Source: Fimbriimonadaceae bacterium (lineage in GTDB: Bacteria > Armatimonadota > Fimbriimonadia > Fimbriimonadales > Fimbriimonadaceae). Taken from it: 64,000 bases of DNA. Below the pieces are notes generated by a model. That model did not search any database. It was given only the letters and a program-made list of their open reading frames with translations, and was not told the DNA's origin. The stretch is taken from positions 235,256 through 299,255 of the forward strand of contig JAHCHO010000003.1 in NCBI GenBank assembly GCA_026129685.1, written 5' to 3'. A program made the translations under genes and the position numbers. Shown piece after piece: positions 2,572-42,628 of the stretch. The first letter of the stretch is position 1. Every line of letters begins with the position of its first letter.

Positions 2572-3816
2572 ATGACCCTCGACCACGCCCGACGACTCGA
2601 TGCCGCCGACCCCCTGGCCTCCTTCCGGACCCGGTTCCTGTTGCCAGAAGGCCTCACCTACCTCGACGGCAATTCGTTAGGTCCTCTTACGATATCGGGT
2701 CGCGATGCGCTTGCGGCGGCTACCGAACGCTGGTCGCGACGCCTGATCGGAGGCTGGAACGAGGACTGGATCGCGATGGCGTCTCGCGTCGCCGCGCGCC
2801 TTGCCCCCCTCCTTGGTGCCTTGGAGGAAGAGGTGCTGATCGGTTCCGACACCTCCACCAACCTCTTCCGATTGGCCCACGCCGCCGCCGAGATCGCGCC
2901 GGACCGAACCGACATCGTGACCGACGACCTCAACTTTCCCTCGGACCGGTACGTGTTGGAGGGGATCGCCAAGGGTTTGGGAAGGCGGGTTCAAGTCGTT
3001 CGATCCACAGACGGCATCCACGCCGACGAGGGGGCGATCATGGGCGAGATCACCGACCGAACATCATTCGTTTGCCTAAGTATGGTCGCCTACCGAACGG
3101 GATACCTGTACGATGTCCCGACCATCACCGATCACGCCCACCGGCACGGGGCCCTCGTCCTCTGGGACCTCAGCCATGCCGCCGGCGTCGTCCCGATCCA
3201 CCTCGACGCGTGGAAGGTGGACCTGGCGGTGGGATGCACCTACAAGTACCTGAACGGTGGCCCCGGCGCACCGGCCTACCTCTATGTGCGTCGAGACTTG
3301 CAGGGCCGACTCCGCAATCCCGTCCAGGGTTGGTTTGGGCACGCCGATCCCTTCTCCATGGTCGAGGACTACGCGCCAAGTCCAGGTGTCCGGCGGTTTT
3401 CCTCCGGCACCCCTCCCATCTTGTCCCTTGCCCCCGTCGATGGTGGCGTCCAACCTACCGTCGAGGCCGGCGTCGCACGAGTACGCGAGAAGTCCGTCGC
3501 CCTGACCATCGCCTTTGTCGAGGAAGTCGAGCGAATCCTCGTCTCCCTTGGCTTCTCGATCCAGAGTCCTTGCGACCCGGCGCGTCGTGGGTCGCACGTC
3601 TCCCTCGGCCACCCGTACGCCCTGGCCGTCAGTCGCTGTCTCGTCGCCGAACGCGCCGTCGTCCCCGACTTTCGCCCACCGAACGTCCTTCGCTTTGGGT
3701 TCGCCCCCCTCTACAACCGTTTCGAGGACATGGTCCGCGCCATCGAGCAAACTGCCGAGGTCGTGCGAACCGGTGCGTACGAGCCGTACCTCGCGGCGCG
3801 ACCCTTCGTCCCCTGA
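2572..3816 (+). CDS. kynU: kynureninase
   Basis: 414 aa. 'FLLPEGLTYLDGNSLGPL' N-terminus and 'CTYKYLNGGPGAPAYLYV' PLP-lysine region are typical of kynureninases. Confidence 0.9.
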   Translation: MTLDHARRLDAADPLASFRTRFLLPEGLTYLDGNSLGPLTISGRDALAAATERWSRRLIGGWNEDWIAMASRVAARLAPLLGALEEEVLIGSDTSTNLFRLAHAAAEIAPDRTDIVTDDLNFPSDRYVLEGIAKGLGRRVQVVRSTDGIHADEGAIMGEITDRTSFVCLSMVAYRTGYLYDVPTITDHAHRHGALVLWDLSHAAGVVPIHLDAWKVDLAVGCTYKYLNGGPGAPAYLYVRRDLQGRLRNPVQGWFGHADPFSMVEDYAPSPGVRRFSSGTPPILSLAPVDGGVQPTVEAGVARVREKSVALTIAFVEEVERILVSLGFSIQSPCDPARRGSHVSLGHPYALAVSRCLVAERAVVPDFRPPNVLRFGFAPLYNRFEDMVRAIEQTAEVVRTGAYEPYLAARPFVP

Positions 3817-3860
3817 TCCGCCGCCGAAGTATCCTGACCCGACGTAAGGAACACACAGAG

Positions 3861-4334
3861 ATGCCGATCCAACCCGGAACCCCCGCCCCCGATTTCACCC
3901 TCAAGACCAAGGGCCCCGAGGGCCTGCGCGACGTGAGACTCAGCGACGAGCTCGGCAAGCGCAACGTCGTCCTCCTATTCTTCCCCGCCGCCTTCACCGG
4001 GGTTTGTACCCAGGAGATGTGCGACGCCACCCAGTTCGGCGAGTTCCAGAAGGATGGCACCGTCGTCTATGGCATCAGTGCGGACACGCCCTGGGCACAA
4101 GAGCACTGGGCCAAGTTGCACGATATCGGGGTGACCCTCCTGAGCGACTATCGCCGCGAGGTCGCCAGGGCCTACGACTGCGTTTGGCCCGACCTCGCCG
4201 GACTTGGTCCGTCCGCCGCGCGCGCGTCCTTCGTCGTGGATCGGGAGGGGGTCGTCCGCTACGCCGAGCAGACTCCGGCCCCGAGCGACTCCCCGAACTT
4301 CGAAGCGATCCGCGCCGCCCTTGCCTCGCTCTGA
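3861..4334 (+). CDS. peroxiredoxin (AhpC/TSA family)
   Basis: 157 aa from the internal ATG at 3861 of the long 2562-4334 ORF. 'VVLLFFPAAFTGVCTQE' is the peroxidatic-Cys motif. Confidence 0.9.
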   Translation: MPIQPGTPAPDFTLKTKGPEGLRDVRLSDELGKRNVVLLFFPAAFTGVCTQEMCDATQFGEFQKDGTVVYGISADTPWAQEHWAKLHDIGVTLLSDYRREVARAYDCVWPDLAGLGPSAARASFVVDREGVVRYAEQTPAPSDSPNFEAIRAALASL

Positions 4335-4343
4335 ACGGAGAGG

Positions 4344-4769
4344 CTACTCGGAAACGACCTCGGCGCTGCCGAGGCACGGCTCTGCCTTGATGGTGCCGTT
4401 CTTGTCATGGGCCGTGGACGCCGCCGGCGGCGTCTGCGGCCGATACGTCTCGCACGCCTCGCCCGTCGAGGCAAGCCGGTAGGCGAGGAAGGCCCCCGCC
4501 GACGCCGCCAGACACAGGGCGAGCGCCCACTTCGCGCGCATCACCGTCCGTGCGTAGGGTGCCTCTCGCGAAAGCGGCGCTCCTCGAACCGCATCGCCGA
4601 ACCGAGCGGAGAGGCTCGCGACCGCCTCCAAGCGTTCCCGAAGGCGCGGATCGAACACCGCCCGCACCGCCAGACACGCCTTGCGCCAGCCTCCGAGTTC
4701 GCCCGCCGCGAACAGGAACACGTCCTCTTCCGAGCGGCGGCGCCAGGAAACCAAGCGATCGTCGATCAT
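4344..4769 (-). CDS. putative membrane anti-sigma factor
   Basis: The ATG at 4769 overlaps the sigma gene stop (ATGA). Single TM helix 'WALALCLAASAGAFLAYRL'. The position downstream of an ECF sigma gene supports the call. Confidence 0.55.
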   Translation of the reverse strand: MIDDRLVSWRRRSEEDVFLFAAGELGGWRKACLAVRAVFDPRLRERLEAVASLSARFGDAVRGAPLSREAPYARTVMRAKWALALCLAASAGAFLAYRLASTGEACETYRPQTPPAASTAHDKNGTIKAEPCLGSAEVVSE

Positions 4770-5359: not shown

Positions 5360-5492
5360 GACGTTAACTTGCGAAATGACGACTCACCTACCCGACTGCG
5401 TTTTGGTCGCGAAAAGTTCCAGCAAAAGTTTGCCGGCCGGAATGCCGTCGACCCGCGAACCGGTCTTGGCCCTCGGCCCGTCCTTTACTCCG

Positions 5493-7700: not shown

Positions 7701-8678
7701 CTAGATTCGAGCCGGCCGAACCGCCCGATCCGTCGCCGCACTCTCCTGCGCCGCCAAAGCGATTGAAACCGCCATCGCGCCCTCGTACGCCGGCACGGGA
7801 ACCGGAGAACCCCCTTGCACGGCGTCCACGAAGGCGCTCAGTTCCAGGTAGTACGGGTCGTCCGTCTCGAAGAGCGGGCTCTCCGCCGACGACCCTCCCG
7901 CCAAGTGCGTTCGTAACGAGGGGTGCGCCCGGCTGTCGTACTCGATCATTCCCTCCGACCCGCACACCTCGTACGTCGTCCGAAACCCGCTCGGATCCAT
8001 CCACGTCGCCTCGACGTGCGCCACCGCCCCGCCCTCGAACGAAAGCGTCGTGAGCGCGTAGTCCGGCCCACCCGAAAGGTCCTTCGCCCGCAAGGACCGA
8101 GCGTACAGGTGCGTCACCTCGCCCAAGGTCCAGCGTAGCCAGTCGAAGTCGTGGATCGCCAAGTCCAACAACACGCCCCCTGAGCGAGCGTGGTCCATGA
8201 ACCAGTTGTCCGCGCCCTTGATCGGGGGCGGCCCGCCTCGACGAGTGCGCGCCGCCGCCGGCGTCCCCACGCCTCCGCCCTTCACGTGACGATGCCCCGC
8301 CGCGAACTCCGGGAAATACCGCACCACCTGCGCCGCCCCGAACGGGACATTCGCCTTCGTCGCCGCCTCCAGAAGCCCGACCGACTCCTCGAGCGTCCGC
8401 GCCAGCGGCTTCTCCATGATCAGCGCTCGACCCGCCGAAAGAACCTTCTGCCCGTACGCCGCGTGCAAGTCCGTCGGCAGGCACACGTCCACCACGTCGC
8501 ACTTCGAGATCAGGTCGTCCGATCCCGTCGTGTTGATCGCCCCGTACTCCTCGGCCAACCGCGCCGCCCGGTCCGTTTGGCGATCGTGGACGTAGAGCTG
8601 GACGTTCGCCATCTTGGCGTACTGTCGGGCGTGGACCTGGCCCATGCCTCCGTTTCCGAGAATGCCGACGCGAATCAT
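7701..8678 (-). CDS. Gfo/Idh/MocA family oxidoreductase
   Basis: The internal ATG at 8678 gives 'MIRVGILGNGGMGQVHARQY', a Rossmann N-terminus. The upstream part of the 7701-8837 ORF is not protein-like. Confidence 0.85.
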   Translation of the reverse strand: MIRVGILGNGGMGQVHARQYAKMANVQLYVHDRQTDRAARLAEEYGAINTTGSDDLISKCDVVDVCLPTDLHAAYGQKVLSAGRALIMEKPLARTLEESVGLLEAATKANVPFGAAQVVRYFPEFAAGHRHVKGGGVGTPAAARTRRGGPPPIKGADNWFMDHARSGGVLLDLAIHDFDWLRWTLGEVTHLYARSLRAKDLSGGPDYALTTLSFEGGAVAHVEATWMDPSGFRTTYEVCGSEGMIEYDSRAHPSLRTHLAGGSSAESPLFETDDPYYLELSAFVDAVQGGSPVPVPAYEGAMAVSIALAAQESAATDRAVRPARI

Positions 8679-8960
8679 GCCGCACCCTGTTTCGCGAACC
8701 GCCGCCCGGTTCCTTCGACGATGCGACCAAAGCCCGAGCCGCGGGCAAGAAGACCCACCTTCCCCCAACGCCGACCGATATGCTCTGCTCGTCTTCGGCG
8801 CGTAATGCCCAGTCGCCTCGACCCAGGCTCGAACCAACCCTCCGCGACTCAGCGTCGTTCTCGCGAAGGTCTTCTCCGACGAAGCAGGTATCCTTTGGCG
8901 TCGCGTTTTGACGCGATCTGGGTTGTCATGGCTCGTATCACCACGCGCAAGGAAGCCCGT

Positions 8961-11900
8961 ATGAGAGTGAGACTCAACATGATGTTGCTTCGGAACGCCT
9001 TCCGCAGAACGACCCGGGCGCCTTTCGGTAAGGCGTTCGGTCTGTTACTGACCCTCTTCGCGACCCTCTTTCCCGGGGTCGCACTCGCGTCCGGCGGCGA
9101 AAACGTCGCCCTCGAGTTCACCTCGTCCGACCTGATCTACCTTTGGGTATCCCTCGGGTTCGGCTTGGTCGCCCTCCTCGCGGGCGTGTTCCTCATCAAG
9201 TCGGTCTTGGCCCAATCGCCAGGTTCCGCGAAGATGCAGGAGGTCGGCCAAGCGATCAAGGAAGGCGCGCTCGCCTACCTGCGACGCCAAGTCCGGACGA
9301 TGATCCCCTTCGTCCTGGTCCTCGCCGTCGGCCTGTGGGCGATGTACAACCCGCAGTACGGAAGCACGACCGCCCTCTTCGTGGCGCTCTCCTTCGTGGG
9401 CGGCGTCGCCGCCTCCTACATCGCGGGCTACGTCGGCATGATCATGGCCGTCAACGGCAACATGCGGACGGCGCACGCCTCCCTCACCAGCTTCAAGAGG
9501 GCGCTCGAAGTCGCCTTCCGAAGCGGCGGCGTCGCCGGCATGATCACCGTCGGCATGGGCCTGATCGGCGCGACCATCATCTTCCTCGGCGCCCGAGGCG
9601 AGGCCATGAAGCTCCTCGTCGGCTTCGGCTTTGGTGGCTCGCTCGCCGCGCTCTTCATGCGCGTCGGCGGCGGCATCTTCACGAAGGCCGCCGACGTCGG
9701 AGCCGACCTGGTCGGCAAGGTCGAGGCCGGAATCCCCGAGGACGACCCCCGGAACCCCGCCACCATCGCCGACAACGTTGGCGACAACGTCGGCGACTGC
9801 GCCGGCATGGCCGCCGACATCTTCGAGTCCTACGAGGTCACCCTCGTCGCCGCGATCGTGCTCGGCGCCGCCACCGCCTCGATCTTCGACACCGCGACCT
9901 GGATGAAGCTCATCCTCTTCGCGCTGATGGCCCGCGGCGTCGGCATCGTGGCCTCCATCCTTGGCATCCTCTCCGTGCGCGGCACCGACGACGTCAACGT
10001 GGACGCCCTCAAGCCCATCCGCAAAGGCTTCGCCTTCTCCGCGATCGTCGCCCTGATCGGGACCGCCGGCATCGCCTGGTTCATGATGGGCGGCAAAGGC
10101 GATCCCATCAAGACGACCCAGCTCAAGTCCACCGACGAGTATCGGGCGGAGGAGATCAAGCAGGTCCAGAGCGTCCGCGACCAGATCGCCAAGGACAAGA
10201 AGCTCAAGGATTGGGAGGTCGCCCTCAAGGACGTCAGCGACGACTCTCGCGTCAAAACCCTCTTCCCCGACGAGCAGATTCGCCAGCAGGTGGTCTCGAC
10301 CGCGCTCTTCACCGAACTTGACAAGCTGCCGATCCCGGAGACCTTGAAGGGCTATCAGCCCCTCGACTTCACCAAGACCGGTGGTGTCCTCGACTACGCG
10401 ATCAACAACCCGAACGCCGAGCAGTTCAACCCCGCCGACAAGGTTTCCATCAAGGACGCCTTCGGAGGGACGGGCAAGGACCTGTTCGTGTTTCGCCTCG
10501 AGATCAGCCCCAAACCCGCCGCGGGCCAGACCCCTCCTGCGGGCCAGAAGCCCGAGACCCGCTGGTACGGTCCCGTCAGCGTGGCCGCCAAGGACAAGCT
10601 CATCAAGCAGGCCACCGGCATCGAGGTCAAGGAACTTGCCAAGGTCCCCGTCGCGCTCTACGCGAACCACGACGGCGACCTCGTCGCCGTCGCCGAACCG
10701 GACCTCAAGGAGCCGCACCGCGTCATCCCGATGATGCCGCTCTCCTACTATCCGATGAGCCCCGCCGACTACAAGAAGGCGGAAGAGGCCTCCCAGAAGG
10801 ACCCGGCGAAGCCCCTGCCGCGCCCGGCCGAGATCAAACTCGCCGTCGCGACCCACAACGTGGTGCCGTGGTACCTGTTCTTCATCGCCATCGCTTTCGG
10901 CGTGCTCATGGCCTTCGCCATCGAATCGCTCACCGACTACTACGTCTCGACCCATAAGAAGCCCGTTCAGGAGGTCGCCGCCGTCGCCACCGCCGGCCCC
11001 GCCCCCATGATCATCCAGGGCTTCGCCTACGGCCTCGAATCCAGCGTGATCTCGGTCTTCGCGATCGTCATCGCCCTGCTCGTGCCCCTGGCCATCTTTG
11101 CTCCCGCCCTCTACGGCGGATACCTGCTGAGCTTCTACGGGGTCGCCCTCGTCGGGCTCGGCCTCCTGACCACCACCGGCTACATCCTCGCGATGGACAC
11201 CTTCGGCCCGATCTCGGACAACGCCCAAGGCGTCTACGAGATGTCTGGCGAAGGCCACGACAACGAATACGGCATGAAGGGCGTCCAGCGCCTCGACGCC
11301 GCCGGCAACACGACGAAAGCGCTGACGAAGGGCTTCGCCATCGCGACCGCCGTCGTCGCCGCCGTCGCGCTGTTCCACTCGTACGTCGAAGCCGCCCGGC
11401 TCGTCACCGTCGGCATGCCGATCGAGGTGCCCGAGATCTTCCTCGGCCTTCTGATCGGTGGCGCGGCCCCCTACCTGTTCTCCGCCTTCTCGATCAACGC
11501 GGTCGGTCGCGCCGCCTTCGAACTCATCTACGAAGTGCGCAGCCAGTTCCGCAACGATCCGGGAATCATGGCGGGCACCAGCAAACCGAACTACGGTCGC
11601 TGTGTGGCCATCGTGACGGCGGCGGCGCAGAAGGAACTCCTCGGCCCCGGCGTCCTCGCGATCGCCCTCCCCGCCCTCGTCGGCTTCGGCTTCGCCATCG
11701 GCAAGCCGCCCACCGAGATCGGCGGCAACCTCTACAACCTCACTGGCGCCCAGGCGCTCGGTGGGTTCCTCGCCGGCGCGATCGTCAGCGGTCAGCTCAT
11801 GGCCGTCCTCCTCGCCAACTCGGGCGGCATGTGGGACAACGCCAAGAAGCTCATCGAAGACGGTCTCCACGGTGGCAAGGGGACGGAAGCCCACAAGGCC

Positions 11901-12239
11901 GGCGTCGTCTGCGACACCGTCGGCGATCCGTTCAAGGACACCGCCGGGCCCGCCCTCAACCCGCTCATCAAGGTCATGAACCTGGTGGCGCTGTTGCTGG
12001 CGCCGGTGGTCATCCTTCCGCTTGCTCAGAACACGCTGATCATCATCGCCCTCGTCGCCGCCGCCGCCCTGACCTTCTCGTTCTGGTGGTCCAAGCGTGG
12101 CTCGATGGGATCGGCGATGACCGCGGCCACCGCGGCGAACGCGGCCGCCGCGATCGCCGCCCCGGCTCCCGGTCCGACCGTGGCTCCCAAGCCGAAGAAG
12201 ACCATCACCGTGGACGACGAACCGACCGACAAGAACTGA
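8961..12239 (+). CDS. hppA: membrane-bound proton-translocating pyrophosphatase (K+-independent type), unusually long (1092 aa)
   Basis: 'GGGIFTKAADVGADLVGKVE', 'DNVGDNVGDCAGMAADIFESY' and 'DTVGDPFKDTAGPALNPLIKV'. 'GNTTKA' carries the Lys of the K+-independent subgroup. The ATG at 8961 is preceded by AAGGAAG; an ATG at 8928 is also possible. Confidence 0.9.
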   Translation: MRVRLNMMLLRNAFRRTTRAPFGKAFGLLLTLFATLFPGVALASGGENVALEFTSSDLIYLWVSLGFGLVALLAGVFLIKSVLAQSPGSAKMQEVGQAIKEGALAYLRRQVRTMIPFVLVLAVGLWAMYNPQYGSTTALFVALSFVGGVAASYIAGYVGMIMAVNGNMRTAHASLTSFKRALEVAFRSGGVAGMITVGMGLIGATIIFLGARGEAMKLLVGFGFGGSLAALFMRVGGGIFTKAADVGADLVGKVEAGIPEDDPRNPATIADNVGDNVGDCAGMAADIFESYEVTLVAAIVLGAATASIFDTATWMKLILFALMARGVGIVASILGILSVRGTDDVNVDALKPIRKGFAFSAIVALIGTAGIAWFMMGGKGDPIKTTQLKSTDEYRAEEIKQVQSVRDQIAKDKKLKDWEVALKDVSDDSRVKTLFPDEQIRQQVVSTALFTELDKLPIPETLKGYQPLDFTKTGGVLDYAINNPNAEQFNPADKVSIKDAFGGTGKDLFVFRLEISPKPAAGQTPPAGQKPETRWYGPVSVAAKDKLIKQATGIEVKELAKVPVALYANHDGDLVAVAEPDLKEPHRVIPMMPLSYYPMSPADYKKAEEASQKDPAKPLPRPAEIKLAVATHNVVPWYLFFIAIAFGVLMAFAIESLTDYYVSTHKKPVQEVAAVATAGPAPMIIQGFAYGLESSVISVFAIVIALLVPLAIFAPALYGGYLLSFYGVALVGLGLLTTTGYILAMDTFGPISDNAQGVYEMSGEGHDNEYGMKGVQRLDAAGNTTKALTKGFAIATAVVAAVALFHSYVEAARLVTVGMPIEVPEIFLGLLIGGAAPYLFSAFSINAVGRAAFELIYEVRSQFRNDPGIMAGTSKPNYGRCVAIVTAAAQKELLGPGVLAIALPALVGFGFAIGKPPTEIGGNLYNLTGAQALGGFLAGAIVSGQLMAVLLANSGGMWDNAKKLIEDGLHGGKGTEAHKAGVVCDTVGDPFKDTAGPALNPLIKVMNLVALLLAPVVILPLAQNTLIIIALVAAAALTFSFWWSKRGSMGSAMTAATAANAAAAIAAPAPGPTVAPKPKKTITVDDEPTDKN

Positions 12240-34541: not shown

Positions 34542-36554
34542 TTAGTCGCCGCGAACGGGACGTCGCGTCACCGTATTGCTCGCCAGGGTGACCGCCCCCG
34601 TCTTCGTCAGCAGAGTGCCGTCCAGCCGCGCCCCGGTGTTCACCGTGATCGACACTTCGGCAAGGATGACGCCCTTGAACACCGAGTTGACTCCGAGCGT
34701 CGCCGACGTGCCCACCGACCAGTACACGTTCGTCGCCTTGGTTCCGCCGGCCAGCACCACCTGCGTGCCCGTGGACGTCGTCAGCGTGCTGCCCATCTGG
34801 AAGATGAACACCGCGTCCGAGTCGCCCTGCGCGTCGAGCGTCACGTTCCCCGCCGTCAGCATCACCGATGTCGAGTTCTTGTACAGCCCCGGCGTGAACG
34901 TCAGTCCGGAGAGGTTGCCGGGCAGCGTCGCCGCACCCAGCCGACTCGATGCCTCGAGCTGACCCGTGAGCAGGTCGCTCTTCGCCTTGGCCGCCACCGC
35001 GTTGCCGGCCTGGATGCTGCCGTTGACCCGTCCTGGAGGGAAGCCGACCACCGCCGAGCCGGGGCTAAGGCCCAGGTCGCCGTTGATCACCGTCGGTCCC
35101 GCGTTTGTGACCGTCGAGCCCGCCAAGACCGCGTAGGTCGAGGCCGCCCCGAGGTCGATCGTGCCCTGAGCGCGCTGGACGCCGGTCCGGAAAGTCCAGA
35201 CCTTCCGAACGGCCAGCGAGTTGCCCGTCGAGTCCTTCGCCCCGGTCCCGATGTTCGCCGTGTACAAGGTGTCCGGCGATAGGTCTCGCAAGGGCCTGAA
35301 GGTGGCGATCCGGTTGCTCGTGTCGTAGGTCACGGTGCCCGAAATCCCTTCGACGGTGAACGTCGAAGTGTTCAGGGTGTCGGCGCGCATCGGCTCGCTG
35401 AACGTCGCGTTGATGCTTCGGTTGAGGAACACGTTCGTCGCGCCGTCCGACGGATTCGTCGAGGTCACCGTCGGCGCCGTGCCGTCGACGATCCCCGCCG
35501 TCGTGAAGTTCCAGACCTTCGCGGCTTCGATCACGTTCCCGGAAGTGTCCTTGACTCCGGTCGACAGGATCGCCGTGTAGACGGTGTTGGCCGTGAGCGA
35601 GGCGTCCGGGTCGAGAACGGCCACCCGACTCGCGTAGGAGATCGTCGCCGGGATCGCGCCGCCGCCCGCCTTCTTGAGGGTGAACGTGGCCGAACTGATC
35701 GTCGCCGCGTCCATCTCCTCGCTGAACGTTGCCGTTATGTTTTTGTTGGTGGCGACGCCAACCGCACCCGCCGTCGGGTCGGTCGCCGTCACTCTCGGGA
35801 AAGTCGTGTCCGCGTTGGTGCCCGTCGTGAACGTCCAGACATGGTCGCTCGCTAGCGGGTTGTCCGATAGATCCTGGATTCCCGTCGTAAGGGTAGCGGT
35901 ATAGGTGGTGCTCGCCGACAGAGGACGGTTGGGGCTGAACGCCACAACGTTGTCGAGCACCGTCAGGTTGCCCGACTGGGCGCCCCCCGGACCGATCAGA
36001 CGAAACGTGGAGGCGTTGATCGAGGCGACGGCGACCGTCTCGCTAAAGTGAACCACCAGACTCTTGTTCGTCGCGACCCCCGTCGCCGCGCCGACCGGGT
36101 CCGTCGAGGTTACGGTGGGGGCGACCGTGTCGGGCGCGTCGCCCGTCTTGAACGTCCACGAGTAGTTCTGATGCATCGGCGTACCCGCGCGGTCGCGCAC
36201 CGCGGTCGTGATGGTGGCGGTGACCGAAGTTCGGACCGGGATCACCGAGTTCAGACTCAGCGTGGCCGTCCGGTCCACCACGCTCAAGGTTCCGGCGAGC
36301 GGCCCGCCCGGGCCCGTCGCCCGAAACGTGTCGCTCGTGAACGTCGCCGGGTCCATCGGCACGCTGAAGGTCGCCACGATCCGCTTGGCCGTGGGCGTGG
36401 AAAGGTCGCCGCTTCGGGGCGTCACCGAGGTGACGGACGGAGGCGTCGGGCGGGCGCCGGTGCCATCGTCGCCCCCTCCGTTGCCCCCGCATCCCGAGAT
36501 GAGCGCGCCGGACACGATGATCGCGAGCGCGCCAATAGTGATTCGTTTGTTCAT
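34542..36554 (-). CDS. surface lipoprotein: 4 tandem Ig-like (SbsA_Ig/Big_5-type) repeats + C-terminal ice-binding-like DUF3494 domain
   Basis: Lipobox 'GALISGC'. There are four units of about 100 aa, each starting 'P-x-VTS(T/V)(D/N/T)P' and ending 'W(T/N)F(K/T/R)T(G/A)'. The C-terminus 'AASTYAVLAGSTVTNAGPTVINGDLGLSPGSAVVGFPPG ... AVFIFQMGSTLTTSTGTQVVL ... NVYWSVGTSATLG' is a close pattern match to DUF3494 ice-binding proteins. Confidence 0.85.
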   Translation of the reverse strand: MNKRITIGALAIIVSGALISGCGGNGGGDDGTGARPTPPSVTSVTPRSGDLSTPTAKRIVATFSVPMDPATFTSDTFRATGPGGPLAGTLSVVDRTATLSLNSVIPVRTSVTATITTAVRDRAGTPMHQNYSWTFKTGDAPDTVAPTVTSTDPVGAATGVATNKSLVVHFSETVAVASINASTFRLIGPGGAQSGNLTVLDNVVAFSPNRPLSASTTYTATLTTGIQDLSDNPLASDHVWTFTTGTNADTTFPRVTATDPTAGAVGVATNKNITATFSEEMDAATISSATFTLKKAGGGAIPATISYASRVAVLDPDASLTANTVYTAILSTGVKDTSGNVIEAAKVWNFTTAGIVDGTAPTVTSTNPSDGATNVFLNRSINATFSEPMRADTLNTSTFTVEGISGTVTYDTSNRIATFRPLRDLSPDTLYTANIGTGAKDSTGNSLAVRKVWTFRTGVQRAQGTIDLGAASTYAVLAGSTVTNAGPTVINGDLGLSPGSAVVGFPPGRVNGSIQAGNAVAAKAKSDLLTGQLEASSRLGAATLPGNLSGLTFTPGLYKNSTSVMLTAGNVTLDAQGDSDAVFIFQMGSTLTTSTGTQVVLAGGTKATNVYWSVGTSATLGVNSVFKGVILAEVSITVNTGARLDGTLLTKTGAVTLASNTVTRRPVRGD

Positions 36555-40518: not shown

Positions 40519-40884
40519 TCACTCCAGCCTGGAGAGACCGATCGCGTAGGCAAGAGCGACGTCCATCCGGGCGATCTCGGCCCTATCGAGTCTGCCAAGC
40601 CTTCCGCCGACCCTCCGCACCGAGACCGTCCGGACTTGGTTCAGCATCACTTTCGACGGTTGGCTCAAACCCGTTTCGGCCGAATCTAGCAGCGTCTCGA
40701 ACGGATACACCCTTTCCAGCTTGCGGATCGTTATCGCGGCCACCGTGATTACCGGGCTGAGGGCATTGTAGATCGTCGGACTCAGGACGACGGCAGGCCT
40801 TCGACCGCCTTGTTCGGAGCCGACGACCGGGTCGAAGTCCACCCATACAACGTCTCCTCGAGCCCATTTCGGCTCAGGACGCAC
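40519..40884 (-). CDS. mazF: type II toxin, PemK/MazF family endoribonuclease
   Basis: 'RGDVVWVDFDPVVGSEQGGRRPAVVLS' and 'VITVAAITIRKLERVYPFE'. Confidence 0.88.
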   Translation of the reverse strand: MRPEPKWARGDVVWVDFDPVVGSEQGGRRPAVVLSPTIYNALSPVITVAAITIRKLERVYPFETLLDSAETGLSQPSKVMLNQVRTVSVRRVGGRLGRLDRAEIARMDVALAYAIGLSRLE

Positions 40885-41161
40885 GCGTCCACACCTCGTC
40901 TTCGATTGGATTCCAGGCCTCGGATTCCTCCGTCCAGATCTCGGCCATGTCCTCGCACATGGCGACGATGTCCGCGCGAAGCTTGGCGAGCCGGTCTTCT
41001 TCGAGTTTGCGCGCGATCAGTTCCTCGAGCACCCGACTCCGATCACCGGACGGAACCGCCGACTCGAACTCCTGGACCAGCGATCCCGACAGCGCGTAGG
41101 TCCGTTTGGTTTTTCGCGCAATCGCCATACGATAATTATGGCGAATAGGCACGATGGCCAA
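40874..41161 (-). CDS. cognate antitoxin (RHH/MazE-like); start at 41161 or the internal ATG at 41128
   Basis: Small acidic ORF overlapping mazF by 11 nt. 'KRTYALSGSLVQEFESAV' is a beta-strand/helix N-terminus typical of ribbon-helix-helix antitoxins. Confidence 0.6.
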   Translation of the reverse strand: MAIVPIRHNYRMAIARKTKRTYALSGSLVQEFESAVPSGDRSRVLEELIARKLEEDRLAKLRADIVAMCEDMAEIWTEESEAWNPIEDEVWTRAS

Positions 41162-41265: not shown

Positions 41266-41360
41266 TGGCGGGAATGTGTGGGAATCGAACCCACCAGACG
41301 CCCGAAGACGTCTCTCACGGTTTTGAAGACCGGGCGGGACACCAGCCCCGATCCACTCCC
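41266..41360 (-). tRNA. selC: tRNA-Sec (anticodon UCA), CCA encoded
   Basis: Minus-strand 95-mer GGGAGTGGATCGGGGCTGGTGTCCCGCCCGGTCTTCAAAACCGTGAGAGACGTCTTCGGGCGTCTGGTGGGTTCGATTCCCACACATTCCCGCCA. The 8-position acceptor has 7 pairs plus G-A. The D-stem is 6 bp (CGGGGC/GTCCCG) with a 4-nt loop. The anticodon loop is CUUCAAA. The variable arm is 7 bp with a TTCG loop. The T-stem is 5 bp with loop TTCGATT. The discriminator is G. Confidence 0.85.
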
Positions 41361-41374
41361 GAACGCATTATGCG

Positions 41375-42628
41375 TCAACCCCGCGAGGCGAGCACGTTCC
41401 GCTCGTATGACCGGACCTCTTCCAGCCAGTCTGCCCCGACGGGAACGTCCTCCCTTCGGCAGAACTCGTCCCAGACCGCACCGAACGGGAGCGTCTTCGT
41501 CTCTTCGAGCAGCGCCAGCCGCGCGGTATGGTCGCCGGCCTCTTCCGCCGAGCGCAGCCGCCCGATGGGTTCGAGAAGCGCCGCGAGGAGGCACTTCTGC
41601 GCGTTGCGCGTCCCGATGACCCACGCGGCGATGCGGTTGATGCTGGCGTCGAAGAAGTCGAGTCCGATCGCCGTCCGACCCAGGAACTCTCCTCGTACGA
41701 CCTCCTCGAGCAGCGCCCGCGTGGCGTCGTCGAAGAGCACCACGTGGTCCGAGTCCCACCGAACGCCCCGGCTCACGTGGAGGAGCACCCCCGGCACGTA
41801 CCGTTGCACCGCCGAGATTTTGTCCGCCACCGACTCGGTCGGATGGAAGTGCCCGGCGTCGAGGCACAGCCACTTGCCCCGGCTGGCGGCGTAGCCCAGG
41901 TAGAACTCGTGCGACCCAACGGTGTACGACTCGGCTCCGATCCCGAAGAGCTTGCTTTCCACCGCGTCCGCGTTCCACTCGGGGCTGACGGGTTCGGCGA
42001 AGATGGCGTCGAGCGAGGCCTCGAGTCGGTCCCGGGGTGCCTTGCGGTCGACCGGCGTGTCCTTGTAGGCGTCCGGAATCCAGACGTTCGTCACGGTTCG
42101 CTTGCCGAGCCGTCGGCCCGCCTCGGCGGCGATCCTCCGACACGCGATCCCGTGGCGAACCCAGAAGCCTCGAACCGCCGGGTCGCGATGGCTCAACGTA
42201 AACCCGTCGTCCGCGAGCGGATGGGAGAAGAAGGTGGGGTTGAAGTCGAAGCCGAGGCCCCGCTCTTGGCACCACCGCACCCAAGAGTCGAAGTGCTCGA
42301 AGCCCAACTCGTCTCGCTCCACCGTCTTCCCGCCCGTATCCGCGTAGCTCGCGTGCAGGTTCAGACGGTGCCGGCCCGGGATGAGCGAGAGGGCCTTCTC
42401 CATGTCGGCGCGCAGTTCGGCGATGGTCCTGGCCTTGCCGGGGTAGTTGCCCGTCGCCTGAAGCCCGCCACCAAGCGTCGGGTCCGGTCGGTCGAAACCG
42501 CCGACGTCGTCTCCCTGCCAGCAGTGAATCGAGATCGGGGTCGCCGCCAAGGTCGCCAGCGCCGACTCGGCGTCCACCCCCCACTCAGCGTATTGCGATG
42601 CGGCAAGATCGAATGCGTTCGAACCCAC
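41375..42628 (-). CDS. rhaA: L-rhamnose isomerase
   Basis: 417 aa. '[14 protein letters not shown]', 'LNLHASYA' and 'WIPDAYKD' track E. coli RhaA along its whole length (recalled, not aligned). Confidence 0.9.

Follow-up and report, generated by a model that had tools for sequence, protein, structure and literature searches.

A gene for the selenocysteine tRNA (selC) lies on the minus strand at positions 41266–41360 of the 64-kb stretch of DNA analyzed here (the window), and it is very probably a functional, canonical bacterial selC belonging to an uncultured Armatimonadota bacterium related to the Fimbriimonadales. Genes of this kind are already known, and standard tools detect this one; two programs and a manual reading of the cloverleaf agree on a tRNA-Sec gene of 95 nt, its encoded CCA included, as the first-pass annotation of this DNA had proposed. 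At default settings ARAGORN reported a single tRNA in the window, a tRNA-SeC at 41266–41360 (−) with anticodon tca at position 35, and when all 4227 Rfam families were searched against the complete window at their gathering thresholds, the only hit was to the tRNA-Sec family RF01852 (41270–41360 (−), 76.1 bits, gathering score 47, E 7.4e-14). This match spans model positions 1–91 of 91 and so is not truncated, and RF01852 outscores the other models of the tRNA clan. A covariance-model score below the family threshold, together with a genome lacking selA, selB, and selD, had been named in the first-pass annotation as grounds for giving up the assignment; the score obtained exceeds that threshold by 29 bits. 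The word "hidden", which the same annotation had applied to the gene, was an overstatement, since ARAGORN and Rfam both detect it at default settings. That the prediction is a chance match can be put aside almost entirely: ARAGORN over-predicts tRNA-Sec in some genomes (PMC5330540), but it made only one prediction in these 64 kb, the independent covariance model supports that prediction at the E-value given above, an exact homolog sits at the syntenic site in related bacteria, and all 59 complete matches to a tRNA-Sec search pattern in other genomes were called tRNA-SeC as well.

The tRNA runs from a mature 5′ G at 41360 to the discriminator G at 41269 and the CCA at 41268–41266, all on the minus strand. 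Its acceptor stem is built from G1-C91, G2-C90, G3-C89, A4-U88, G5-U87, U6-A86, and G7-C85, followed by G8•A84, and a two-nucleotide linker then leads into a 6-bp D-stem (C11-G26 to C16-G21) with the 4-nt loop UGGU. The anticodon stem has six layers with one mismatch, C28•U44, at the second, and its CUUCAAA loop presents the anticodon UCA (tRNA positions 35–37, 41324–41326 (−), from both ARAGORN and the sequence). A 7-bp extra arm (A48-U65 to C54-G59) is capped by UUCG, and the T-stem consists of five uninterrupted pairs (G67-C83 to G71-C79) closed by the loop UUCGAUU. Eight nucleotides separate the T-stem from G92, the discriminator (G73), giving a 13-layer acceptor/T helix of the 8+5 type. 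The first-pass annotation had listed the anticodon loop, the D-arm of 6 bp and 4 nt, the 7-bp extra arm with its TTCG cap, the 8+5 stack with an innermost G-A pair, and the discriminator G with an encoded CCA, and each is present at the residues given. Folded on its own, the sequence exceeds its shuffled versions in stability by only a modest margin (z = −1.9), as is usual for tRNAs.

Judged against the bacterial tRNA-Sec of which E. coli selC is the prototype, the window gene shares UCA within CUUCAAA, the 8+5 layout, the 6-bp/4-nt D-arm, the long extra arm, G73, and the encoded CCA. In the published literature the defining features of tRNA-Sec are G73, a 13-bp acceptor/T stem, and an encoded CCA, which 93% of bacterial tRNA-Sec possess (PMC5330540). 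The window gene departs from the prototype in three respects: G•A stands in place of a Watson-Crick pair in the eighth acceptor layer, the six-layer anticodon stem has a C•U mismatch at its second layer, and neither selA nor selB adjoins the gene. The first two of these are both common to many other bacterial tRNA-Sec.

The G•A layer was examined in a comparison set of 60 tRNA-Sec loci, retrieved from a species-representative genome collection with a pattern built on the anticodon arm and the T-arm. ARAGORN called a tRNA-SeC at 59 of the 60, the remaining one (L058) being cut by the end of the locus. When the sequences were anchored on the T-arm, 8 nt separated the T-stem from a G discriminator and seven standard acceptor pairs were present in nearly all, the few exceptions being loci at which the start called by ARAGORN seems to be shifted. 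Of the tRNA-Sec retrieved from Armatimonadota, Bacillota, Chloroflexota, SAR324, and Pseudomonadota, the majority have a mismatch such as G•A, A•A, G•G, or C•A in the eighth layer, and none of the 18 distinct Armatimonadota sequences has a standard pair at 8:84. A reading of the G•A layer as the mark of a pseudogene was therefore rejected, because a non-Watson-Crick eighth layer is conserved across Armatimonadota and common elsewhere. By these alignments the 13-layer 8+5 geometry is kept and the non-Watson-Crick innermost layer is a common, conserved variant; by layer count the helix has the 13 layers expected of bacterial tRNA-Sec, and the pairing in its eighth layer is non-canonical. In a mostly actinobacterial group of tRNA-Sec (Microthrixaceae, Acidimicrobiales), together with those of Vulcanibacillus and a Myxococcota MAG, the eighth layer is usually Watson-Crick. 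Two of the Microthrixaceae MAGs, VLC_102 (L020, L024) and HK-STAS-ACTI-7 (L008, L036), each carry tRNA-Sec on two contigs, which could represent two selC copies or redundancy introduced by assembly or binning.

Variant forms of tRNA-Sec and tRNAs that resemble it also bear on the acceptor branch. Published bacterial tRNA-Sec variants with a 12-bp (7/5) acceptor/T stem, of the Cloacimonetes and Epsilonproteobacteria types, lack a residue (PMC5330540), and they resemble the window tRNA in having only seven Watson-Crick or wobble acceptor pairs. The window tRNA, however, has eight residues on both strands, which allows its G•A to form a stacked 13th layer, and it is therefore not a 7/5 variant. 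A second group comprises the selC* tRNA-Cys, with U73, an 8/4 fold, and a bulged A in the T-stem, and the allo-tRNAs, with twelve-pair branches of the 8/4 or 9/3 type (PMC7609411). Were the window gene a tRNA of this group, UGA would be read as Cys, Ser, or another amino acid without SelA or SelB, and known examples do have a long acceptor stem, a long extra arm, and sometimes a UCA anticodon (PMC7609411, PMC5389517). We consider this reading extremely improbable: membership in the group fails because the window tRNA has G73, an intact, uninterrupted 5-bp T-stem, and eight positions between T-stem and G73 in an 8+5 layout, and it further possesses the 6-bp/4-nt D-arm recognized by SelA and clears the Rfam tRNA-Sec threshold by the 29 bits already noted.

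A first line of support for function is conservation. Two lineages of close relatives, represented by Logan contigs (loci L061 and L062–L064), encode RhaA proteins with 86% and 83% amino-acid identity to that of the window, and in both the selC gene is identical at 95 of 95 positions. The neighboring rhaA gene of the window shares only 77–80% of its nucleotides with those of the relatives, and 55–59% at third-codon positions, while the spacer 3′ of selC differs in length and cannot be aligned; at the third-position rate of identity, 95 matches in 95 positions would arise with a probability of about 1e-22. By these comparisons the gene is under strong purifying selection.

Beyond these two lineages, the nearest tRNA-Sec sequences found were those of other Armatimonadota, which are 82–86% identical to the window gene (best 86%) and which include Uphvl-Ar1 (CP021423.1, L057), the MAG MFD02832 (L007), a Fimbriimonadaceae MAG (L026), Chthonomonas, and Armatimonas. 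They have in common with it the GGGAG start of the acceptor, identical anticodon and T arms, and the non-Watson-Crick 8:84 position, and those of a Fimbriimonadales-like group are also 95 nt long. Their extra-arm sequences, in contrast, are unlike that of the window, their D-stems and acceptors differ by compensatory changes, and unrelated genes flank their selC loci in place of the rhaA and mazEF genes found in the window. In an alignment of the window gene with 19 Armatimonadota tRNA-Sec (18 distinct sequences), standard pairs occupy 91.8% of pair cells, compared with 42–61% when the pairing partners are slid. Six pairs show compensatory changes across the phylum; five of these belong to the six-pair D-stem, in which 99.1% of cells are paired, and none of 500 shuffles reached the observed covariation score. 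The anticodon and T arms are uninformative in this respect because the search pattern fixes both, making them invariant by construction. Relative to its nearest Armatimonadota homologs, the window tRNA itself has C11-G26 where they have G-C or G-U and U6-A86 where they have C-G. Purifying selection among close relatives and covariation across the phylum together argue that the gene is functional.

The first-pass annotation had also placed selC 14 nt downstream of rhaA, and this was confirmed, the spacer occupying exactly 41361–41374. The rhaA gene (41375–42628 (−)) encodes a full-length L-rhamnose isomerase (PF06134, E 2.2e-197, 657 bits) and ends in a TGA stop codon at 41375–41377 (−), 14 nt upstream of selC. 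The first gene 3′ of selC, taken from the list of open reading frames, is a mazE-like antitoxin gene (40874–41128 (−), 84 aa from an internal ATG) whose product has no Pfam match, and it is followed by a gene for a MazF/PemK-type toxin (40519–40884 (−), PF02452, E 1.6e-29). An 83–84-aa gene occupies the matching site in L061–L064, immediately before a PemK/MazF gene, and the order in the relatives, on three further contigs from the two lineages, is the same as in the window: DegT-type aminotransferase, rhaA, tRNA-Sec, antitoxin-like gene, PemK/MazF, GH2 beta-galactosidase (lacZ), and maf. The mazE-like/mazF pair adjoining selC spans 40519–41140 (−) in the window, 11380–12008 in L061, and 11290–11918 in L062. 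A genomic island with selC as its integration site was considered and rejected: no integrase was found, nor any att-like copy of the end of the tRNA, a search of the window for the selC 3′ 24-mer at up to three mismatches yielded no second copy and no relevant direct repeat, and gene order is conserved. The position of selC between rhaA and the mazEF module is ancestral and not that of a mobile island.

The window has a G+C content of 61–69%. Its pyruvate kinase has one relative at 87% identity and further hits at 57–66%, and all but one of the named hits are from Fimbriimonadaceae, Fimbriimonas sp., F. ginsengisoli, Fimbriimonadales, or Armatimonadetes. The closest named homologs of RhaA (about 70%), in contrast, belong to Verrucomicrobiota (Terrimicrobiaceae, Opitutaceae, Chthoniobacteraceae), whereas pyruvate kinase and tRNA-Sec both point to Armatimonadota. 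This suggests a different history for rhaA, which may have been acquired by horizontal transfer. The host is concluded to be a divergent Armatimonadota lineage related to the Fimbriimonadales.

Upstream of selC, the hexamer CATAAT (41367–41372 (−)) lies at −12 to −7 relative to the mature tRNA 5′ end and resembles a −10 element, making it a putative promoter element. The segment GCATAATG that precedes selC does not vary among the window, L061, and L062, while the rhaA stop codon and the length of the spacer vary. One hypothesis is that selC is transcribed from its own promoter, with the conserved CATAAT as its −10 box; it is equally possible that selC is co-transcribed with rhaA and then processed. 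A simple consensus scan called neither a full sigma-70 promoter nor an intrinsic terminator beside the gene. Since −12 to −7 is the canonical position of a −10 element, the start predicted from the box coincides with the mature G1, and RNase P processing of the 5′ end would then be unnecessary. Transcription without a 5′ leader is known for vertebrate tRNA-Sec, and we know of no such case for a bacterial selC; that selC in this clade is transcribed in this manner is an idea we hold only tentatively and regard as rather unlikely. At other Armatimonadota selC loci the corresponding box (TATAAT, TACAAT, or TAAAAT) stands 11–12 nt upstream, from which a short leader would be expected. A conserved CCATAAT-N6-ATG arrangement also precedes mazE in the window, L061, and L062, which suggests that the mazE mRNA may be leaderless.

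In the established bacterial pathway, a tRNA with these features would be serylated by SerRS, for which the long extra arm and G73 are identity elements. SelA would then turn Ser-tRNA-Sec into Sec-tRNA-Sec, reading the 6-bp D-stem and the 4-nt D-loop and using selenophosphate supplied by SelD, and SelB would read the 13-layer 8+5 acceptor/T helix and bring the tRNA to UGA codons with a SECIS hairpin downstream. The 13-layer helix of bacterial tRNA-Sec excludes binding of EF-Tu and commits the tRNA to SelB, and this bears on a further alternative, namely that the window gene encodes an opal-suppressor seryl-tRNA that is charged by SerRS, left unconverted, and used for general UGA read-through. 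The SerRS identity elements and the UCA anticodon would suit such a role, but the helix would bar EF-Tu, and with TGA so frequent an ordinary stop codon in the window, rhaA included, general suppression would be costly. This suppressor scenario is accordingly given very little credence, and a tRNA dedicated to selenocysteine remains the preferred reading.

Pfam scans recovered no SelA, SelB, or SelD among approximately 50 ORFs scanned across the 64-kb window, which is part of a 478,250-nt contig. The window is likewise a small sample for selenoproteins: a strict codon-score scan for in-frame TGA codons with coding signal on both sides returned none, and scans based on GC3 and on a relaxed codon score returned only TGAs whose flanking ORFs lie opposite a confidently called gene, such as the TGA at 5386, upstream of a sigma-factor gene. 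None of the three scans thus gave a convincing candidate, and the first-pass annotation had likewise seen none in the window. These absences are what one would see if selC were a relic, an intact tRNA-Sec gene remaining after the loss of selA, selB, and selD from a genome that decodes no selenocysteine. Yet a functionless gene would not remain invariant, as this one has in three lineages whose rhaA genes match at only 55–59% of third-codon positions, and the window sequence carries compensatory changes relative to its nearest Armatimonadota homologs; the presence of tRNA-Sec also tracks that of the Sec machinery, and selA and selD are present in relatives within the phylum. Loss of the machinery behind an intact gene is therefore improbable, if less so than the look-alike and suppressor readings, and a functional selC is favored.

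Of the 19 Armatimonadota loci compared, 18 showed no sel gene beside selC among their fully scanned ORFs (the low-GC L007 had zero called ORFs), so that the absence of such genes from the window is unremarkable. The only locus of the 19 with sel genes beside selC, from a Chthonomonadales MAG (L044), carries selA (TIGR00474, 490 bits), then selD (TIGR00476, 331 bits), and then tRNA-Sec; the cluster, on DATIKM010000033.1, consists of selA, selD (3388–4464 (+)), tRNA-Sec, and tRNA-Thr. The reading frame of this selD extends upstream through an in-frame TGA (MSEPRDERERLKRLTHLVRCAG*ASKLGPAQL) within the N-terminal stretch RLTHLVRCAG*ASKLGP. From the GAGCGCK motif of E. coli SelD, we take the position of this TGA to be the catalytic Cys/Sec site, and because the TGA falls there, the L044 selD is probably itself a selenoprotein gene. 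A hairpin begins 3 nt after the TGA, with a stability not significantly above that of shuffled sequences. Named SelA homologs also come from Chthonomonas calidirosea and from several MAGs of Armatimonadota, while none of the best 120 SelA hits is on a contig of 478,250 nt, the length of the one that holds the window. Two Logan SelA candidates, each on three contigs, were considered as the SelA of the close relatives and were set aside because they come from unrelated samples, and a search of the literature on Armatimonadetes and selenocysteine found nothing relevant.

In the Secmarker survey, the presence of tRNA-Sec correlates well with that of the Sec machinery and selenoproteins (PMC5330540). 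This correlation, the complete conservation of the tRNA in close relatives, the covariation of its stems, and the L044 cluster together lend good support to the view that the host decodes UGA as selenocysteine. We further infer that selC is expressed and, from its identity elements, charged, and that selA, selB, selD, and selenoprotein genes are located elsewhere in this genome.

The finding leaves our knowledge of tRNA-Sec and of Sec decoding unchanged. It marks this Armatimonadota lineage as a likely user of selenocysteine, and its value is practical rather than conceptual, serving as a flag for selenoprotein-aware annotation. Given a bona fide selC, annotation of the full genome should expect genes that are cut or split at in-frame TGA codons, as the selD of the Chthonomonadales relative illustrates. 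Likely bacterial selenoprotein genes include selD itself, formate dehydrogenase genes, and thiol-oxidoreductase-like genes.

Several other features of the window merit mention. An ORF for an H+-pyrophosphatase (8190–12239 (+)) matches PF03030 in two blocks, with approximately residues 326–636 aligned to profile positions 1–298 and residues 891–1270 to positions 298–645, and about 250 residues without a Pfam match lie between them (roughly 10100–10860). H+-PPases in the PDB likewise align in two stretches; no intein domain was detected in the insertion, which could be a lineage-specific addition to a cytoplasmic loop. The first ~300 codons of this ORF also have no Pfam match, and the first ~650 nt overlap a minus-strand gene at 7701–8837, for which reasons this part of the ORF is probably non-coding. 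A C-5 cytosine DNA methyltransferase gene (PF00145, 5376–6713 (+)) adjoins a gene for an ECF-type sigma factor. Finally, a gene at 34542–36554 (−), encoding four Big_5 Ig-like domains and an ice-binding-like domain, sits between a dprA-like gene and the position that maf occupies in the relatives; as the dprA-like gene and maf are adjacent in L061 and L062, this gene was either inserted in the window lineage or lost in the relatives.
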